A DNA stretch of 8,945 bases from positions 1 to 8,945 of IMG/VR virus record IMGVR_UViG_2585427729_000015; one strand, written 5' to 3'. Below are positions 1-8,945 of the stretch, in pieces. Origin of the DNA: a virus (Duplodnaviria > Heunggongvirae > Uroviricota > Caudoviricetes). Made by a program: the position numbers and the translations under genes. Every line of letters starts with the position of its first letter. Position 1 is the stretch's first letter. The notes beneath the pieces were generated by a model. The model was not told the DNA's origin. It did no database searches and saw only the letters and a list, made by a program, of their open reading frames with translations.

Positions 1-380
<380 letters not shown>

Positions 381-679
381 TAGACAAAGACACTATCACG
401 CAGTGGATACGAAGTGGACGACTTCAGGCCGCAAAGATAAATCCAGATAAACCTAAAAGCCCATATCGCATTTGCAAGTCAGACTGCATTGCGGCGCTTA
501 AGTCTGTAAGACACAATAGCGCGGTGAATGCGGTTGATGTGCAGGAGGTTAAAGCATGTCAATCAAACTACGCGGTGGCACGTGGCACTGCGATTTCGTC
601 GCGCCAGATGGATCAAGAGTTAGACGCTCACTTAAAATATCGGACAAAAGGCAAGCGCAAGAATTTCACGATCGTCTGA
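381..679 (+). pseudogene. Excisionase / AlpA-like DNA-binding gene, 5'-truncated by the IS insertion; 3' end overlaps the integrase start
   Basis: Frame of track ORF 308-679 translates from 381 as ...TITQWIRSGRLQAAKINPDKPKSPYRICKSDCIAALKS..., resembling the helix-turn-helix of phage Xis/AlpA-type excisionases. No start codon or N-terminal helix remains because the IS terminus abuts at 380. Position immediately upstream of, and co-oriented with, the integrase is the canonical xis-int arrangement. Confidence 0.5.
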
Positions 680-1716
680 AAGCAGAAGCGTGGAGAGTAA
701 AAAATCTCGGGGAATCACCGAAAAAGCTATTCAAGGAAGCCTGCATACGGTGGCTGCGTGAGAAATCGGATAAGAAGTCCATTGATGATGACAAGAGCAT
801 TATATCGTTCTGGATGTTGCACTTCAGAGAAACCATTCTCTCTAACATAACAACAGAAAAAATAATGGAGGCGGTAGACGGGATGGAAAACCGCCGCCAT
901 CGCCTGAACTGGGAGATGAGCCGGGACAGGTGTTTGCGGCTTGGCAAGCCAGTGCCGGAGTATAAACCAAAGCTGGCAAGCAAAGGAACGAAGACGCGGC
1001 ATCTGGCAATACTTCGCGCTATTCTCAATATAGCTGTTGAATGGGGATGGCTTGACAGGGCGCCCAAAATATCAACACCACGCGTTAAGAATGGACGAAT
1101 CAGATGGCTTACAGAGGAGGAATCGAAGCACCTGTTTGCAGAAATTGCTCCTCATTTCTTCCCTGTGGTCATGTTTGCAATCACGACAGGCCTTCGCCGT
1201 TCCAACGTTACAGACCTTGAGTGGTCACAGGTCGATCTGGATAAGAAAATGGCATGGATGCACCCTGATGAAACAAAAGCTGGCAATGCGATCGGAGTTC
1301 CTCTTAACGAAACCGCATGCCAGATATTAAGAAAACAGCAGGGGCTCCATAAGAGATGGGTATTTGTCCACACCAGACCTGCCTACCGAAGCGACGGAAC
1401 AAAAACAGCAGCGGTAAGGAAGATGAGAACCGACAGCAACAAGGCATGGAAGGGAGCGTTAAAGCGGGCGGGCATTAGCAACTTCCGCTTCCATGACCTG
1501 AGGCATACCTGGGCAAGCTGGCTGGTTCAGTCCGGTGTCTCTCTTCTTGCACTTAAAGAGATGGGAGGATGGGAAACTCTCGAAATGGTTCAAAGATACG
1601 CCCACCTTTCAGCCGGGCATCTCACCGAGCACGCGAGCAAAATCGATGCGATTATAAGTCGCAATGGCACAAATACGGCACAAGAGGTGAACGTGGTTTA
1701 CTTAAATGTGAGGTAA
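556..1716 (+). CDS. int: Tyrosine-type site-specific integrase (phage integrase family, P22-like)
   Basis: 386 aa with GGAGG Shine-Dalgarno at 543-547. Catalytic signature residues are visible: box I arginine in TTGLRRSN, HxxR in FRFHDLRHTWASWL, and catalytic tyrosine context EMVQRYAHL. The gene ends 14 bp before a tRNA-Thr 3' fragment (att core). Confidence 0.9.
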   Translation: MSIKLRGGTWHCDFVAPDGSRVRRSLKISDKRQAQEFHDRLKAEAWRVKNLGESPKKLFKEACIRWLREKSDKKSIDDDKSIISFWMLHFRETILSNITTEKIMEAVDGMENRRHRLNWEMSRDRCLRLGKPVPEYKPKLASKGTKTRHLAILRAILNIAVEWGWLDRAPKISTPRVKNGRIRWLTEEESKHLFAEIAPHFFPVVMFAITTGLRRSNVTDLEWSQVDLDKKMAWMHPDETKAGNAIGVPLNETACQILRKQQGLHKRWVFVHTRPAYRSDGTKTAAVRKMRTDSNKAWKGALKRAGISNFRFHDLRHTWASWLVQSGVSLLALKEMGGWETLEMVQRYAHLSAGHLTEHASKIDAIISRNGTNTAQEVNVVYLNVR

Positions 1717-1730
1717 TTTATTGATTTAAA

Positions 1731-1776
1731 TGGTGCCGATAATAGGAGTCGAACCTACGACCTTCGCATTACGAAT
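1731..1776 (-). tRNA. tRNA-Thr(CGT) 3' fragment, 46 nt (anticodon loop to CCA end); att core copy, not an intact tRNA gene
   Basis: Reverse complement of 1731-1776 is ATTCGTAATGCGAAGGTCGTAGGTTCGACTCCTATTATCGGCACCA, identical to my recollection of the 3' 46 nt of E. coli thrW including the CGT anticodon and CCA end. Sequence beyond 1776 does not continue into an anticodon stem, D-arm or acceptor 5' strand. Confidence 0.75.
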
Positions 1777-2523
1777 TATAAGAATCCGCTTCTAATTCAA
1801 AGTATTACCCCATCAACACTGTGCTCACACGTCCCACCACATCAAAACATGTAAAGCCTTGCAAGCCATTGTGAGGCCTTATGTGTCTCAGTTTTGTCCC
1901 ACCTTGTATTATGACTTGCATAGCCAATGAAGATAAACGTGACGACAAACAGCGCAGCAGTCTTCTTTTCTTTCACACTTTCCCCAATCAGCATACATAC
2001 TTTCTACCATAACTGTAGTGAATGTCTGTTATGAGCGAGCAAAAGAGATTCAATTACCGGGGAATTACTCCGACATAAGCTCTCCCAGAAACACCGGAAC
2101 AGCGATTCGCATATTCTCTTCTATACTTTCAGTCTGACCGGCTGGAGATTTCATAGCAAGAAAATGGATGCGCCAAGACCTATGCGGGAAAGAGGCTGAG
2201 GAAATAATTGCCGATAGCACTGTGCCCGCCGAAAAGTTAATCTGGCACGCAATGACGCGCGTCCTTGGGGCATCAGGAATCAGAGAGCCAACTTAACAAC
2301 CCATTATATATTATTTAACAGGACCGTTACATGTACAAAGTTCAATGATTAGTGATTCTGTGACGCCACATACAACCTAAGCCCCTGATATAAAACCAGT
2401 CTATGCAACACCTAAAAATCATATATGATAGGGTGATAAGTCAACGCGCAGTATAAAAATCAAGCTAAAAAATGCTTTCAGCATAGTGAATCTATTTCAC
2501 ACTACATAATTAAGGATGAAAAA

Positions 2524-3369
2524 ATGACTGCACCAGTAATTAGTTTTATCAATATGAAAGGTGGGGTTGGTAAAACAACTTTATGCGTTGGGATTGCTGA
2601 GTTTTTAGCCAACCATATGGGGCGCAAGGTTCTAGTTATCGATATTGATCCTCAATTTAATGCCACTCAGTCCTTAATGGGGCATTATGATCGAGTAGAA
2701 GAATATATGACTGCCCTTCGCCCTAATAATCAAACCATTCGAAAGATTTTTGAGCTTCCAAATTCATTAATGGAAGATGAAAAGAAAGTGACACCAGAAC
2801 AGGTCATTACTAAAGTTTCAGACAATCTTGATATTATCTTAGGTGATATAAACATTATCTTTGATACTAACCAAGAGGGTATTAGAATAAAAATGTTGCG
2901 TAAATTCATCACCGAAAATGACTTAAAAGAAAGTTACGACTATATCTTTATCGATAGCCCCCCAACAATCTCATTATTTACAGATACCGCACTCCTTGCT
3001 TCTGATTATTATCTTACTCCGGTTAAAATTGATCACTACTCGGTGCTTGGAGCAAGCAGTTTAAATAGCGTTATAAGAAATATGCGCACACATCATGAGA
3101 AAGAAATCAAGCAAGTCGGTTACATTTATACAAACACTGATGCTGAAATGACCAATAAAACAAGGGAAATTAAAGAACAATTCGAAAACCATACTCAATT
3201 TACAAATTTTTATTTCTTTGAAAATCAATTAACCTACGTGCGTGATTTAATGGTAGGTTATCAAGGAAATATTCCTTCTTGTTATTCAAAGTCACGCCAA
3301 GATATAGAAAAGATCTGTAACGAATTTATTAACAGAGTGGCTCACTTGGAAGGTAACACAAATGAATAA
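2524..3369 (+). CDS. ParA/MinD/Soj-family P-loop ATPase (deviant Walker A)
   Basis: 281 aa; N-terminal ISFINMKGGVGKTTL matches the deviant Walker A KGGxxK[ST]; VLVIDIDPQFNATQ (A' box) and YIFIDSPP (Walker B) are present. AAGGA Shine-Dalgarno 7 nt upstream of the ATG. Visibly AT-rich, roughly one-third GC by eye. Confidence 0.85.
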   Translation: MTAPVISFINMKGGVGKTTLCVGIAEFLANHMGRKVLVIDIDPQFNATQSLMGHYDRVEEYMTALRPNNQTIRKIFELPNSLMEDEKKVTPEQVITKVSDNLDIILGDINIIFDTNQEGIRIKMLRKFITENDLKESYDYIFIDSPPTISLFTDTALLASDYYLTPVKIDHYSVLGASSLNSVIRNMRTHHEKEIKQVGYIYTNTDAEMTNKTREIKEQFENHTQFTNFYFFENQLTYVRDLMVGYQGNIPSCYSKSRQDIEKICNEFINRVAHLEGNTNE

Positions 3370-3760
3370 ACAATTAATTAAAGCGCTCAATAAAGCTAAC
3401 AATATGCCCATGACCAAAGAAAACTTCTTAGGCTTGGTAATTATGTTGATTCTTTCAAAAGAGGTTTTTAGATCAAATTTTGATGTTAGTAAATTTATTA
3501 ACAAAACCTTCAAAATATCTTTTTTGAATTATGCTGTACGGTCAAGAACTTTGATGTGCGCTAAAATTTGCAAACATATTAATGAATTAAGTGAGAATGA
3601 CATAAAGATGGCTTATACGCATTTCTTAAACAACATTAACACATTAGACATTATTTTTAATGATGCAAATAAAACAAGCCAAAAATCCACATCTAAAAGC
3701 AAGCATGCTATAAGGAATTTAAATATTTGGATTAATGCAAATAAAAAGGAAGAAGAATAA
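3362..3760 (+). CDS. Hypothetical protein (132 aa), translationally coupled to the ParA-like gene
   Basis: Start ATG overlaps the upstream stop by 8 nt; GGAAGG Shine-Dalgarno 8 nt upstream. Lys/Asn-rich AT-rich coding sequence with no recognisable motif. Same strand and composition as its neighbours. Confidence 0.6.
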   Translation: MNKQLIKALNKANNMPMTKENFLGLVIMLILSKEVFRSNFDVSKFINKTFKISFLNYAVRSRTLMCAKICKHINELSENDIKMAYTHFLNNINTLDIIFNDANKTSQKSTSKSKHAIRNLNIWINANKKEEE

Positions 3761-4425
3761 TGCTCACGCAGGATCCCTTCAACATTGGAAGAGATGTAAA
3801 TTATTTTAGAGCGGAGGTGCAAAAGCACCTCAGAACCACTGATGAAATAAACAAATCAGTATCAATATTTAGGCAAATAAGTCTTTGTAATACAATTTTA
3901 AGTCACAATCCTAATCTAAATCACTCTTCTTATATAAAAGGTTTTATATATGATACCTTAAACTCCTTAATTGCCATTATAAAAAAAAGAGAACGGTATC
4001 TCCAACTGAACTTCCGCTCAATGGTGGAGCATGTGGCCAGAATAAGCCTCAATAAGAACTACAATGGTGGGGATTTTGACCAAACTGTACGTCGTAGAGA
4101 CTTTGACTTCTTAAAAGCCCAACAAGTCGATGAAGGCTGGTCTTATTTACATAATGTCTATATCAACGCCTGTTATTATGTTCACTCCTCCCCCCAAGCG
4201 AACCTAAATGTTACATCAACATTTATATCACTTATGGAGGGAGATTGTAATTCAACACAGCATAAAATGGTGAAAAAACTTCATGAGGTAGTATCGGCGC
4301 TGATGAGAATCATTATAAAGTATTATCATCAGCATATCTCAAACATTTTCTTTAGAAACAAAAAGGATTTAGAGAAAATAATGGGAAAAAGCCTTTATTC
4401 ATATTATACCAGCTTAGACAATTAA
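3760..4425 (+). CDS. Hypothetical protein (221 aa), translationally coupled (TAATG overlap); contains a possible HEPN-like Rx4H motif
   Basis: Start ATG shares one nucleotide with the upstream stop (TAATG at 3758-3762); AAGGAAG Shine-Dalgarno upstream. Contains RSMVEH (residues 86-91). No other recognisable domain by eye. Confidence 0.6.
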   Translation: MLTQDPFNIGRDVNYFRAEVQKHLRTTDEINKSVSIFRQISLCNTILSHNPNLNHSSYIKGFIYDTLNSLIAIIKKRERYLQLNFRSMVEHVARISLNKNYNGGDFDQTVRRRDFDFLKAQQVDEGWSYLHNVYINACYYVHSSPQANLNVTSTFISLMEGDCNSTQHKMVKKLHEVVSALMRIIIKYYHQHISNIFFRNKKDLEKIMGKSLYSYYTSLDN

Positions 4426-4462
4426 TTCTCTCATATTCATTGCGTAGAGCATAAATATCTAT

Positions 4463-4958
4463 CTAACCACCTAAAATGCCAGAAAATCTAGTTGTATACC
4501 GGTGCGAAAATATCTCGCGTTTCATCTGCCACTGCTGCTGAATGCCCTGCCCAGCGAAACAGAGTGTTTCCTTCCCGTCTTTTGCGTTGAGGTGCTCCAG
4601 CACGCTCATTAACTTTTCGCTCCCAGGACCCAGCGCGTTATCGTCGAATAGGTTAGGGCATGCTCTGACTGAAGAAGTCCCCCAGCATTACCCCGGCTTT
4701 CTGATATCGGTGTCCGTCTTTCCATATTGCATCCAGACTCCCCGTTGCTACTGCAATGATATCCCGACTGTCCTGTGTCGGGATGAGGAGCTTCACCGAC
4801 GCGTTGTTACAGTAGTACGACTCGTTCAACGCAAAGGGTATCGTGTAAAACCGATGATGACACTGCCGGCAATCAGCACTGACGTCAGCAAACGTGAGAA
4901 AGAACAGATAAGCCGAACGATTTAGGAAATGTTTGAAGAGACTGATATGTGGATGGTT
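4463..4958 (-). pseudogene. umuC-like (Y-family translesion polymerase) 3' remnant, 5'-truncated and frameshifted
   Basis: Minus-strand translation gives ...DSRDIIAVATGSLDAIWKDGHRYQKAGVMLGDFFSQ in one frame, ending at a stop at 4654-4656, then in the +1 frame ...NLFDDNALGPGSEKLMSVLEHLNAKDGKETLCFAGQGIQQQWQMKR...RYTTR... to a stop at 4463-4465. This matches my recollection of the UmuC C-terminal region. There is no in-frame start and the N-terminal roughly 300 codons are absent. Recognisable similarity is clearest for 4463 to about 4870. Confidence 0.55.
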
Positions 4959-5355
4959 TCAGTTTAAACGCCTTGAACCGTCATATTACCTAAGTACAAT
5001 CCGCTGTGACTGGCAATCATTCAATACTTGCACTATCAAAAGTGCATCAGCCAACCGCAGCACGTCTTGCATACGACCTGTCTGCGGTTTCAATCACCTC
5101 TCACCACCAGTCCCATCAATAATAATTAAACAGCGCCTAAACAAAATAAATAACAACAAGTCAACAACCTCGACAGGATGCCGATGGGATGATGAAGAGA
5201 TAAGAAAGAATAACTAGTAAAGCCCTAAAACGTCAGCGTTCAGACGCGTTTTTTACTTAACCGGTAACAAATACGTTGTATCATAGCAACATAAAATGAT
5301 TGTTCTAAATCAGATTAACTCCTCACTTTTGTACAATGTCGCTTACAGGTATACC

Positions 5356-7245
5356 ATGAAATCCGAGACGCTAACTGTCCAACAACTTTTTCAAGACCGC
5401 CGACAATACTGTGTTCCATTCTATCAACGTGCCTATGTATGGACTCAGCGAAACCAATGGTCAGCTCTACTGGAGGATATCCTAGAGAAAGCACAATCCC
5501 GGCTCTCGGGTACAAAACCAACTCCCCATTTCCTTGGTGCAGTTGTACTGGAACCTCAACCAAAAAAAGGATTATTCGGTGTAGATTCCATACATATTAT
5601 TGATGGTCAGCAACGATTGACCACTCTTCAATATGTTCTGGCATCCATCCGATTAGCATTACGTGCAACAGATCTTTCCAACTTAGAGCCTCTCATTTCG
5701 TCTTGCCTGAAAAACTCAAACGAAGACACAATGCGAAATAAAGAAGTAGAGCGCTTCAAACTGTGGCCAACTTTTCGGGATCAAACTCATTTTATTCAAA
5801 GTTTTAATGTTGAAAATATTGACGATATCCGGAATGTATTCTCTGATAGTTTCACGCAGCATGGTACGTTGCGTAAGCATTTTAATCACCCGCCATCACT
5901 AGAAGCATTATGTTTTTTTACTGAAGCCTTTATAAAGTGGATTAAAATAGAAAATCACTCACCACGAGAAAATGCTGTAGCATTAATTGAGGCTGTCTTG
6001 ACGGATCTGAAACTAGTAAGCATATTTCTCGAGGCTGAAGATGACGCTCAAATAATTTTTGAAACATTAAATGGCAGAGGTGCGGAACTTCATGCCACAG
6101 ATCTTATTCGCAATTATATTTTTATGTGCGCTGAACATGAAAATATTAATGCTGTTGAATTATATGAGAATGAGTGGAAGATCTTTGAAGATACGTACTG
6201 GTCAGAAAGACAACGTCGTGGTCGTATTAATAAACCACGCATGGAGTGGCTAGTGCATGCAACATTGCAATCAGAAAGGCAACGTGAAATCGATCTGTCT
6301 CGTCTTTACAATGAGTATCGTGATTATGTAAGTAAGGACTTGCCTTCACAACGAGCAGATCTGCAAGTAAAGCGCCTCAAACAATATGCATCACAATATA
6401 AAGAATTGGTTGGTGGTTTTGGCACAACCCCCATCTCACACTTTGGACATCGCATCGCAGCCTATGATGTGACGACACTTTATCCGCTTGCTTTGTTCAT
6501 TTCGATAGCTAACATCGCCGATGATGAGAAAGCAGCCATGTATAATGATCTTGTCTCCTACGTAGTACGAAGAGCCGTATGTGGCCTGACGCCAAAGAAT
6601 TACAACAATGTATTTATGAATGTATTGCGGCACTTGTCTAAAACAGAAATTTCCAGTGTTGAGTTACGTAATATCCTCAATAGCTTAAATGGCGAAGCCT
6701 CACGTTGGCCTGGGGACTCAGAATTTCTCAACGCTTGCATCAATGCTCCACTTTATCCTGGCAGGCTCGACGCACCGAAAATGCGCTCAATGTTAACGGA
6801 ACTTGAAAGAGAACTTTGTCGCCAAGTGAAGACAGAGAAGCCTGATGTTCCAAATCTTTCTAACCTCGATATCGATCATCTTATGCCTCAAAGTTGGTAT
6901 TCCTGTTGGCCTCTCGAAAATGGTCATATGGTGACAAATTCAGATGCTACGGTATTGAACCAAATTGTTCTGTCTGGAACCGATCTTACCCCAGAACAGC
7001 TACTGGTAAGGAAACGGCAACAAGCGATAACTACGTTGGGAAATCTAACTTTGCTTAACCTTAGCGTAAACCGTTCTGTTCAGAATGCTGTATTTCTGAA
7101 AAAACGTGATGCTCTCATCGTCCACACCAATCTACGACTGAACATTCCACTTATAGTTAAGGATAAATGGGATGAGGATGAAATCCTGGAGCGGGGTAAA
7201 AAGTTGGGGGAAATTGCATTGAAAGTATGGCCAAAACACGATTAA
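5356..7245 (+). CDS. DUF262 (ParB-like NTPase/nuclease) + DUF1524 (HNH-like) protein, GmrSD-family candidate type IV restriction endonuclease
   Basis: N-terminal YCVPFYQRAYVW and IIDGQQRLTTL (DGQQR) are the hallmark of DUF262; C-terminal NLDIDHLMPQSW and LGNLTLLNLSVNRSVQN resemble the DUF1524 His-Me finger. Start placed at the ATG at 5356 (AGG 6 nt upstream); an in-frame ATG at 5296 with no Shine-Dalgarno would add 20 residues. Confidence 0.8.
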   Translation: MKSETLTVQQLFQDRRQYCVPFYQRAYVWTQRNQWSALLEDILEKAQSRLSGTKPTPHFLGAVVLEPQPKKGLFGVDSIHIIDGQQRLTTLQYVLASIRLALRATDLSNLEPLISSCLKNSNEDTMRNKEVERFKLWPTFRDQTHFIQSFNVENIDDIRNVFSDSFTQHGTLRKHFNHPPSLEALCFFTEAFIKWIKIENHSPRENAVALIEAVLTDLKLVSIFLEAEDDAQIIFETLNGRGAELHATDLIRNYIFMCAEHENINAVELYENEWKIFEDTYWSERQRRGRINKPRMEWLVHATLQSERQREIDLSRLYNEYRDYVSKDLPSQRADLQVKRLKQYASQYKELVGGFGTTPISHFGHRIAAYDVTTLYPLALFISIANIADDEKAAMYNDLVSYVVRRAVCGLTPKNYNNVFMNVLRHLSKTEISSVELRNILNSLNGEASRWPGDSEFLNACINAPLYPGRLDAPKMRSMLTELERELCRQVKTEKPDVPNLSNLDIDHLMPQSWYSCWPLENGHMVTNSDATVLNQIVLSGTDLTPEQLLVRKRQQAITTLGNLTLLNLSVNRSVQNAVFLKKRDALIVHTNLRLNIPLIVKDKWDEDEILERGKKLGEIALKVWPKHD

Positions 7246-7265
7246 TGCAATTAATAAAATGATTA

Positions 7266-7293
7266 TAGCGGCCTTACATTAGTAAGGCCGCTA
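7266..7293. terminator. Perfect 12-bp stem / 4-nt loop hairpin; possible intrinsic terminator, orientation unclear
   Basis: TAGCGGCCTTAC-ATTA-GTAAGGCCGCTA at 7266-7293, 21 bp downstream of the GmrSD-like stop. U-rich flank is present on the minus-strand side (complement of AATAAAATGAT), not clearly on the plus side. Confidence 0.4.
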
Positions 7294-7495
7294 CTCACTA
7301 TTAAATCCTTTAATTTGCAATAAGAACAGCAGTGTCAGCCCTAGGTTTCGGACTTTGTACCGCTTATCTTGTCTTCAAAAATCAGCTCGCATCCTGCACA
7401 GCTCAACGCATTACGTTGTAGATCGGTGTTCTGGTCATTTGTTGATACGCGTACATAGCCAATAAGCATGGTAGCGCCCCCTGACAAAAGCAGGA

Positions 7496-7846
7496 ATGAT
7501 GCCATTTGCTCGTTATTTCTGCATTTTCATAAATGTTGGTTTAAGAGCAAGCGGGCAGTACACCGATAATTTGTTATTTACAGGTCCTGATGGTCTTAAG
7601 ATTCAGGTGTTTCGCCGGACGCTCGCAAATTTGACTACTGTCGGTGTAGTAAATTCTGTGCCAGTGACTTTCCCTGTCCCGTTCCCTGTTAATTGCTGGG
7701 GCGTTTTTTCTACCAAATTAACATGGGTTCAGATAACTAACTCATGCGAGTGGGTAAGCAATACAGGATTTACCGCTCAGGTCATGATGAATATTGCTGT
7801 AAATACAAACACCTCAGACGCTATGTTTTTAGCTATAGGATATTAA
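7496..7846 (+). CDS. Tail-fibre C-terminal (variable) segment, probably a silent or truncated alternative distal tail-fibre coding block
   Basis: Frame is open only from 7475; no convincing ribosome-binding site for the ATG at 7496. Stop at 7844-7846 lies 1 nt before the ATG of a tail-fibre-assembly gene, the typical stf-tfa junction. Sequence is Thr/Asn/Val/Pro-rich (VTFPVPFPVN). Confidence 0.45.
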   Translation: MMPFARYFCIFINVGLRASGQYTDNLLFTGPDGLKIQVFRRTLANLTTVGVVNSVPVTFPVPFPVNCWGVFSTKLTWVQITNSCEWVSNTGFTAQVMMNIAVNTNTSDAMFLAIGY

Positions 7847-7847
7847 T

Positions 7848-8288
7848 ATGAATCGTTTTGTGTTCAGTCCATCTGAGTCCCGTTTTTATGCCATCGAGTG
7901 GCAGGCTGATTATGTTGATAATAATTGTTGGCCGCATGATGCCATTAACGTTAGTGACAGCATTTATTATGAGTTTTCCGGCACTCCCCCTACAGGTAAG
8001 CAACTTATAACTTTAAATAACATGCCATCATGGGGTGATATTCCTCCACCTACACGAGAAGAATTAATTGTCACCGCTGATGTCGAGAAGCAAAAAAGAA
8101 TAGATTTAGCCAATGATTACATGAACGGTAAGCAATGGCCTGGTAAAGCAGCTATTGGTCGTCTGAAAGGTGAGGAACTGGCACAATATAATTTGTGGCT
8201 GGATTATCTGGACGCACTGGAGCTGGTCGATACCGCCAGTGCGCCAGATATTGAATGGCCTACGCCTCCGGCAGTTCAGGCCAGATGA
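7848..8288 (+). CDS. Phage tail fibre assembly protein (Tfa/U-like chaperone)
   Basis: 146 aa with the characteristic C-terminal region ...YNLWLDYLDALELVDTASAPDIEWPTPP shared by lambdoid/Mu/P2 tail-fibre assembly proteins. AGGA Shine-Dalgarno 7 nt upstream. Confidence 0.75.
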   Translation: MNRFVFSPSESRFYAIEWQADYVDNNCWPHDAINVSDSIYYEFSGTPPTGKQLITLNNMPSWGDIPPPTREELIVTADVEKQKRIDLANDYMNGKQWPGKAAIGRLKGEELAQYNLWLDYLDALELVDTASAPDIEWPTPPAVQAR

Positions 8289-8862
8289 CATCCGGCGCGG
8301 TGCTCGTATCTGTTGCTGTCACCGCGTCAATGTAATCCAGCACAGTGTTAAGGCTGGTTGTTTCTGCCTGCGTCAGTTTACGTCCGGCCTGCAATTTCAG
8401 CTGAATCAGACTGATTGAATCCATTACAGTATCAATCAGTGACTGGCGCTGTGCTTCTGCTGCATCTACTGCGGCGCTATGCTGTGCTTCGGTATCCGTC
8501 ACCCATTTCTCACCATCCCATTTATCGTATGGCGTTAACGGGGCGATAGTGGTTGTATTATCAGGGTAATCACCCGGAACTGTGATTTCTTTTGATTCTC
8601 CTGTTTCGGTGCTAAAGACGATTTCACCGCGATAGTCTGGCACATATTCCCATGAGTTAAAATCTACAGATCGGCAGATTGCATAACCAGCTTTGTATGT
8701 GACAGGGGCATCTAAACAGGAATATGCAGGGATACCGACACCAACGGCAAGATATTCAGTTGATGTGGAAATATATTCCCGTGTTTCACCATCATAGTTA
8801 TAGACGGTAATATTCCCCGCCTTTGTAGCAATAAACTCGCTATTTAATACAGCGTTATCCAT
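8260..8862 (-). CDS. Phage tail fibre assembly protein (Tfa/U'-like), convergent with the plus-strand tfa
   Basis: 200 aa; ...PYDKWDGEKWVTDTEAQ... and C-terminal ...DAVTATDTSTAPDVIWPELPEA match the Tfa family pattern. GAGGG Shine-Dalgarno upstream; start ATG overlaps the stop of an upstream minus-strand ORF (TAATG). Confidence 0.8.
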   Translation of the reverse strand: MDNAVLNSEFIATKAGNITVYNYDGETREYISTSTEYLAVGVGIPAYSCLDAPVTYKAGYAICRSVDFNSWEYVPDYRGEIVFSTETGESKEITVPGDYPDNTTTIAPLTPYDKWDGEKWVTDTEAQHSAAVDAAEAQRQSLIDTVMDSISLIQLKLQAGRKLTQAETTSLNTVLDYIDAVTATDTSTAPDVIWPELPEA

Positions 8863-8945
8863 TATGCAGCCCTCACGATATAGTTAAATGCAATATTCCG
8901 TGGACGGGTTTCATTTATCCCATATGCTGTTGTTCTCTGATTCCC
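8862..8945 (-). CDS. 3' end of a minus-strand tail-fibre gene (partial; continues beyond the window end)
   Basis: Open frame across the final 27 codons (...GNQRTTAYGINETRPRNIAFNYIVRAA-stop) with its TAA overlapping the ATG of the downstream tfa. Too short for independent confirmation. Confidence 0.4.
   Translation of the reverse strand, partial: GNQRTTAYGINETRPRNIAFNYIVRAA

Follow-up and report, generated by a model that had tools for sequence, protein, structure and literature searches.

A frameshifted umuC fragment and a truncated dinI fragment form the probable scar of an SOS module in an Escherichia coli prophage arm

The interval 4463–4958 of the DNA analyzed here (a stretch of 8,945 nt, positions 1 to 8,945 of the IMG/VR virus record IMGVR_UViG_2585427729_000015, hereafter the window) is very probably the non-functional scar of a prophage-borne SOS module. 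An initial annotation, made without database searches, had read this interval as a frameshifted, 5′-truncated umuC pseudogene left behind by an earlier module that was later deleted or overwritten, and this reading is supported by synteny with two E. coli prophages, 100181 and UTAK-5. The map of the interval is corrected here: it contains fragments of two genes, one on each strand, and the ORF that spans them on the plus strand is not to be called a gene. The individual features are as follows:

4463–4489, minus strand: replaced 3′ tail of umuC, i.e., the last eight codons and the stop (R-F-S-G-I-L-G-G-stop); the blastn match to intact umuC begins at 4490
4490–4654, minus strand (frame −2): distal umuC segment, UmuC residues 359–413, DUF4113 (Pfam DUF4113, tblastn)
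4653–4660: frameshift site, net loss of 5 nt compared with intact umuC (MAFFT and blastn alignments, codon map)
4659–4844, minus strand (frame −1): proximal umuC segment, UmuC residues 294–355, C-terminal part of the little-finger domain IMS_C (Pfam IMS_C, tblastn, BLASTP)
4839–4845: deletion junction; here the shortened 5′ end of umuC directly meets that of dinI (adjacent blastn matches)
4841–4967, plus strand: dinI remnant, DinI residues 40–80, without start codon and without promoter (blastn, Pfam DinI)
4542–4925, plus strand: chimeric open frame in which 100 codons antisense to umuC are followed, in frame, by 28 genuine dinI codons

On the minus strand, 4463–4844 corresponds to a C-terminal fragment of UmuC (approximately residues 294–414 of 422), and the split of this sequence across two frames is visible in the six-frame translation. 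Pfam matched profile positions 56–99 of 109 of IMS_C in the 4844–4659 frame (E 1.8e-6) and positions 1–49 of 51 of DUF4113 (PF13438; E 3.1e-17). The 126 residues obtained by repairing the frame matched the NCBIfam UmuC model NF002955 at positions 294–419 of 422 (E 1.6e-56); the score of 192 bits does not reach the full-length cut-off of 431, which is to be expected of a fragment. They were 76% identical to the intact Y-family polymerase of UTAK-5 (422 amino acids; BLASTP, E 1e-66), and the DNA at 4490–4839 was 81.4% identical to the intact umuC of that prophage, with five gap positions (blastn, E 2e-95). The alignment to Y-family polymerases was thus highly significant. A tblastn search with UmuC, which had been proposed for defining the frameshift and the truncation points, located both: residues 285–355 of intact UmuC aligned in frame −1 (4871–4659) and residues 359–419 in frame −2 (4654–4472). 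The homology to UmuC ends at 4839–4844, at residue T294; the minus-strand translation of 4845–4958 showed no similarity to UmuC (E 2.3). Thus, the assignment of the minus strand of the whole interval to the C-terminal region of a UmuC-like protein holds for 4463–4844 and fails for 4845–4958. The upper boundary of 4958 was wrong for umuC, and ∼23% of the interval is dinI, on the other strand.

The two umuC frames are 62 and 63 codons long, the first being closed by a stop, and the uninterrupted frame of ∼420 codons is absent. Compared with E. coli K-12 UmuC (Pol V's catalytic subunit; NF002955), the remnant covers the end of the little finger, the region of the β-clamp motif and the DUF4113 C-tail, but it lacks the catalytic palm, fingers and thumb, the sequence QLNLF, an intact frame, the native last eight residues, umuD and an SOS box. 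Even the little-finger domain (IMS_C) is incomplete. For the palm, fingers and thumb (∼residues 1–240), there was no tblastn match in the window and no Pfam match to the IMS catalytic domain. The absence of umuD and of the N-terminal catalytic region of UmuC, which the initial annotation had pointed out for the fragment, extends to the whole window, where all tblastn matches to either of them had E > 1.

The two frames had been thought to part near 4657–4668, which is close enough to the position obtained from the alignments (4653–4660). The bases lost there fall in UmuC residues 356–358; Q357 and L358 of QLNLF are removed by the 5-nt loss, and a TAA is created in the upstream frame. Where intact relatives read FFSQGIAQLNLFDD, one frame of the window gives FFSQSMP-stop and the other NLFDD. 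QLNLF at residues 357–361 is the internal β-clamp-binding motif of UmuC (PMC3716654), and this motif is destroyed in the remnant. For a single draft sequence, one could in principle imagine that frameshift and truncation stem from errors of sequencing or assembly and that the real genome carries an intact umuDC, but no support for such an error was found. The 551-nt stretch 4440–4990 is present in two carrier genomes, L001 and L003, with one and four substitutions, respectively, and without indels, and both frameshift and deletion junction are identical there base for base. The same stretch occurs at an identity of at least 99% in 52 of 5,426 complete E. coli genomes, which were assembled independently. 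Furthermore, the missing piece amounts to 1.5 kb and not to one base, and umuD is absent from the whole window. An assembly error, the probability of which is practically nil, is already refuted by the independent assemblies.

The upper part of the interval is the 3′ half of a dinI gene. Positions 4841–4958 aligned without gaps to the 3′ half of UTAK-5 dinI (L002 6855–6972) at 87.3% identity (blastn, E 3e-37), and position 4958, given initially as the end of the umuC fragment, coincides exactly with the end of the dinI homology. (The dinI half was misplaced when the full 2.1-kb reference was aligned with MAFFT; blastn resolved its placement.) When the stop was read through, Pfam DinI (PF06183) matched at positions 26–63 of 63 (E 3.2e-9). 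This stop is an in-frame TAG at 4923–4925, which is CAG in intact relatives; the dinI frame of the window reads RVKPMMTLPAISTDVSKREKEQISRTI-stop-EMFEETDMWMVSV-stop, compared with RVKPMMTLPAINTDASKHEKEQISRTVQEMFEEADMWLVEN in intact DinI. With residues 40–80 only, the remnant has neither a complete ORF of ∼80 codons nor a start of its own. The plus-strand ORF 4542–4925 had been considered the antisense shadow of umuC. This is correct for its first 100 codons, the antisense frame of which is open in the intact UTAK-5 umuC too, but not for the last 28, which belong to the true dinI frame. Since a Pfam search of the whole ORF gave no family match, and since the antisense frame is open in intact umuC anyway, the ORF was rejected as a real gene; it is an artefact of the deletion.

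The intact module is known from the two E. coli prophages mentioned above, 100181 (L007, NZ_CM128595.1) and UTAK-5 (L002, NZ_CP157152.1). In 100181, the order is tRNA-Pro, SRAP(+), umuC(−), umuD(−), a 77-nt spacer, dinI(+), a HipA kinase gene, a DUF3037 gene, pinE(−) and tail-fibre genes, umuC overlapping SRAP tail to tail; UTAK-5 has the same order, but its umuD is frameshifted. The module has the attachment site on one side and the pin/tail-fibre genes on the other, in the orientation observed in the window. Its copies are intact or nearly so, encoding UmuC of 422, UmuD of 139 and DinI of 80 amino acids, and the spacer between umuD and dinI holds two LexA-type boxes of the form CTG-N10-CAG, which is the LexA consensus. 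The comparison with prophages carrying an intact umuDC-like pair, suggested in the initial annotation, showed the window to be collinear with both. In order and strand, the remnants of SRAP, umuC, dinI, the pin flank and the pin N-terminus agree with the two prophages, with a DNA identity of 81% for umuC and 87% for dinI, and the upstream region of SRAP and the pin flank are conserved as well. In contrast to 100181 and UTAK-5, which hold HipA and DUF3037 between dinI and pin, the window has lost 1.5 kb of the module, and it carries a GmrSD gene inside pin and a ParA cassette that separates SRAP from umuC. Among 80 species-representative loci, those of Citrobacter werkmanii, C. youngae and a few others share the gene order dinI-umuD-umuC-SRAP; in Klebsiella pneumoniae (L071), dinI-umuD-umuC is found without a match to SRAP. 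The remaining features of the arm in the window are as follows:

1731–1776, minus strand: attachment core, 3′ 46 nt of a tRNA-Thr gene of the thrW type (match to the annotated tRNA-Thr in L004)
2120–2269, plus strand: SRAP remnant, upstream region (2120–2152) joined to residues 172–209 (2156–2269) (blastn and tblastn against 100181 and UTAK-5; pseudogene in RefSeq)
2270–4489, plus strand: AT-rich cargo slot (GC 0.33, 2.2 kb), bounded by SRAP and umuC, both with clipped 3′ ends
2524–3369, plus strand: ParA-like ATPase, followed by two ORFs without assigned function (3362–3760 and 3760–4425)
4957–5100: homologue of the pinE 3′ flank and last pinE codons (blastn to UTAK-5, L002 8673–8822, and to 100181)
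5296–7245, plus strand: GmrSD-type (DUF262/DUF1524) type IV restriction enzyme (Pfam GmrSD_N and GmrSD_C; PADLOC mREase_IV, 1437 bits)
7338–7469, minus strand: remnant of the pin invertase, residues 1–44 only (tblastn, 93% identity; Pfam Resolvase)
from 7496: tail-fibre and tail-fibre-assembly genes

Compared with UTAK-5, ∼1,499 bp are missing (L002 5356–6854), which encompass UmuC residues 1–293, all of umuD, the spacer with the LexA boxes and DinI residues 1–39. The blastn match to umuC ends at 4839, and that to dinI starts at 4841; because the closest intact relatives are only 81–87% identical in DNA, the junction can be placed no finer than 4839–4845. No closer intact allele was found among 185,579 species-representative genomes (at most 78% amino acid identity) or in phage and plasmid collections (at most 76%). 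No exact LexA site (CTGT-N8-ACAG) is present in the window, in which sites with one mismatch occur at chance level. Neither repeats nor inverted repeats nor target-site duplications were detected around 2270, 4489 and 4840; because none flank the junction, we infer that it arose by illegitimate recombination, probably using at most 1–3 nt of microhomology. As synteny with the intact relatives shows, the ancestral prophage contained SRAP(+), umuC(−), umuD(−), a divergent promoter region with two LexA boxes, and dinI(+), flanked by the attachment site and the pin/tail-fibre genes. From this arrangement, ∼1.5 kb is missing in the present lineage, reaching from UmuC codon ∼294 to DinI codon ∼40, and the 3′ halves of umuC and dinI are left head to head at 4839–4845. 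The loss was probably a single illegitimate-recombination event; with intact relatives so divergent, a single deletion would look the same as several successive ones. The 5-nt loss in umuC, the nonsense codon in dinI and the replacement of the umuC tail at the edge of the ParA cassette would presumably be later lesions.

The initial annotation had attributed the fragment to an earlier cargo of the umuDC/rumAB type. That it derives from an umuDC-type module is borne out, but this module looks like the prophage's own attachment-proximal arm rather than a captured rumAB or mucAB. The plasmid-type operons mucAB, rumAB and impAB are homologous mobile-element genes for Y-family polymerases, the C-terminal regions of which share 72–74% amino acid identity with the remnant. 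A plasmid umuC reached 73.8% over the C-terminal 126 residues, near the 76–78% of prophage and chromosomal genes, so that identity alone would be compatible with a fragment of separately acquired plasmid or ICE cargo. Unlike such cargo, however, the remnant is syntenic with the prophage arm and not with a plasmid or ICE backbone: its neighbours (the SRAP pieces, the dinI half, the pin flank, the pin N-terminus and the tail fibre) are collinear with the arm of 100181 and UTAK-5. Mobile-element boundaries, i.e., flanking inverted repeats or target-site duplications, are absent, and the best family model is that of chromosomal-type UmuC. A mucAB, rumAB or impAB operon is therefore a most improbable source of the fragment.

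The decay of the umuC remnant was quantified over codons 294–417 in an alignment with 80 intact genes. Its dN/dS against the three closest intact genes was 0.14–0.19, compared with a median of 0.05, a 95th percentile of 0.09 and a maximum of 0.154 for 860 pairs of intact genes, and its median dN was the highest of all 81 sequences. At the 71 columns conserved in at least 95% of the 80 intact genes, the remnant had 12 replacements, compared with 0–2 (maximum 5) when each intact gene was left out in turn. These values show relaxed constraint on the remnant; some of its extra divergence could be older than the inactivation. Of the 12 replacements, five (D378E, G387E, M406I, L407F and P409H) reside in the DUF4113 part, at near-invariant columns, which speaks against the idea that the pieces were co-opted, with either a 48-amino-acid, DUF4113-only ORF (4463–4609) or the chimeric ORF 4542–4925 modulating RecA, UmuD′ or the host Pol V. 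In favor of co-option, the block is kept in 52 genomes, and the 48-amino-acid ORF begins with ATG and retains a significant match to DUF4113, a RecA-NT-like C-terminal extension of UmuC with a motif thought to contact RecA (PMC6511836). However, recent common descent accounts for the presence of the block in these 52 near-identical genomes, the native C-terminal eight residues have been replaced, and the native LexA-controlled promoter has been deleted. A crude consensus scan around the remnant revealed no promoter signal enriched above shuffled controls and no terminator, and the plus-strand ORF is, as described, an antisense frame without family match. Co-option is thus very unlikely. A polymerase fragment without catalytic domain, UmuD partner, promoter and intact reading frame is predicted to be inactive, and nothing in the interval is likely to be expressed or active.

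Among the complete E. coli genomes, no intermediate alleles (90–99% identity to the 551-nt stretch) were found. Relatives at 80–90% occur in only three E. coli genomes; the two examined, UTAK-5 and 100181, carry intact Y-family polymerase genes. The scar is an ordinary prophage pseudogene that has already been annotated: at the corresponding coordinates of the same sequence, RefSeq (PGAP) lists a [quoted passage not shown] (4463–4844, minus strand) and a “DinI family protein; incomplete” (4839–4925, plus strand). These calls do not link the fragments to one deletion, and the dinI call ends at the nonsense codon, unlike the remnant as delimited here. By itself, the scar is of little weight, being textbook prophage decay with both pieces flagged by the NCBI pipeline. 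It does, however, date and order the remodelling of the arm, in which loss of the SOS module went along with a gain of defence-type cargo (the ParA operon and GmrSD).

The lower edge of the scar borders on one of these acquisitions. After RYTTR, the protein alignment diverges (RFSGILGG-stop in the remnant versus RYEDLIHVK-stop in intact UmuC), and 4463–4489 has no DNA homology to intact umuC (blastn) and lies at the right-hand edge of the AT-rich ParA slot. The last eight umuC codons were replaced upon arrival of the ParA cassette, the left edge of which clips the 3′ end of SRAP. As noted initially, the GC content of the umuC remnant (0.526; intact UTAK-5 umuC, 0.493) is higher than that of both neighbours, the ParA slot on the left (0.332) and the GmrSD slot on the right (0.405). 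This contrast is that of old backbone sequence between newer, AT-rich cargo. The ParA cassette was detected in 52 E. coli genomes, each time alongside the remnant, and in no other genome between intact SRAP and umuC. Its proteins belong to the PHROG families 164, 6264 and 7540; the two partners of the ATPase (132 and 221 amino acids) matched no Pfam domain and no PADLOC system. The same three-gene architecture is found beside a prophage integrase in E. coli pZ1323HEC0010-3 (L088 4744–6666), with amino acid identities of 58, 37 and 38%, respectively. The operon, which is thus conserved as a unit and resembles no known defence system, is a candidate for an uncharacterised prophage accessory or defence operon.

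Inserts between convergent umuC and SRAP genes are also found elsewhere. At species level, 9 of 36 loci with this arrangement overlap tail to tail, and the other 27 hold inserts of 0.5–5.9 kb, mostly AT-rich (examples among loci L006–L086: L082 1415–2455, L086 7131–8789, L067 7221–8639 and L008 8242–10857). Sampled inserts encode a type III-A retron reverse transcriptase, a PtuA-type (retron I-A) ATPase and a UG17 defence reverse transcriptase; others encode an AIDA-type autotransporter, a serine recombinase or several unknown ORFs. In these enterobacterial prophage arms, the site where umuC and SRAP meet tail to tail behaves as a hotspot for cargo, including defence-type genes. A literature search for an umuC-associated defence hotspot in prophages returned nothing. 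It is conceivable, though on balance rather doubtful, that the ParA operon (2524–4425) is a new anti-phage or superinfection-exclusion system. SRAP, umuC, dinI and pin are conserved landmarks that delimit cargo slots worth mining for defence genes.

To the left of the SRAP remnant, the tRNA-Thr core at 1731–1776 separates a newer, integrase-bearing prophage end (556–1716) from the old, decayed arm. Window positions 1–1776 contain a fragment of an IS3-family (IS911-like) transposase gene and a gene for a tyrosine integrase of 386 amino acids, ending at this core; in strain 2015C-4136CT1, the same integrase adjoins a complete thrW-type tRNA-Thr gene beside proA. The window contains no complete tRNA gene (ARAGORN) and no Rfam family, the 46-nt 3′ fragment of tRNA-Thr being discernible by homology only. 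The exact combination of this integrase end with the decayed arm occurs in no complete E. coli genome of the collection, and the window seems to join a newer prophage end to an older, decayed arm. The YedK-like SRAP gene has suffered an internal loss of ∼515 nt, separate from the umuC-dinI deletion.

On the other side of the scar, the homology at 4957–5100 shows that dinI and pin were direct neighbours in this lineage. This pin 3′ flank and the pin N-terminus (7338–7469) bracket the GmrSD gene, which took the place of pin codons 45 to ∼181, i.e., most of pin, and the true start of which is likely at 5356. The block 5012–7542 is 96% identical to a region of APEC O1 (L090 4501–7033), where the GmrSD gene is frameshifted; the region upstream of GmrSD is mostly common to ∼190 E. 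coli genomes. In other strains, the slot beside pin is occupied by HipA and DUF3037 genes (UTAK-5 and 100181) or by McrBC-type genes (L089). The latter case, E. coli Ecol_517 (L089 156–3580), has an 80-nt match to 5011–5090 directly 3′ of a pseudogene for a pin-type recombinase, followed by the McrBC-type genes. This suggests that the slot adjacent to pin repeatedly hosts type IV restriction systems, and mcrA in the K-12 prophage e14 is presumably another such case beside pin. We take the arm to resemble the right end of e14, where mcrA lies beside pinE. In strain W21, the arm runs on into Mu-type baseplate genes (YmfQ, baseplate J, gp46 and V). The region 7338–8862, containing the C-terminus of a tail fibre and two convergent tail-fibre-assembly genes, has the look of a Pin-invertible segment; as far as it lies within the window, it contains no long inverted repeats. 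With the invertase cut down to 44 residues, this segment should be locked in one orientation.
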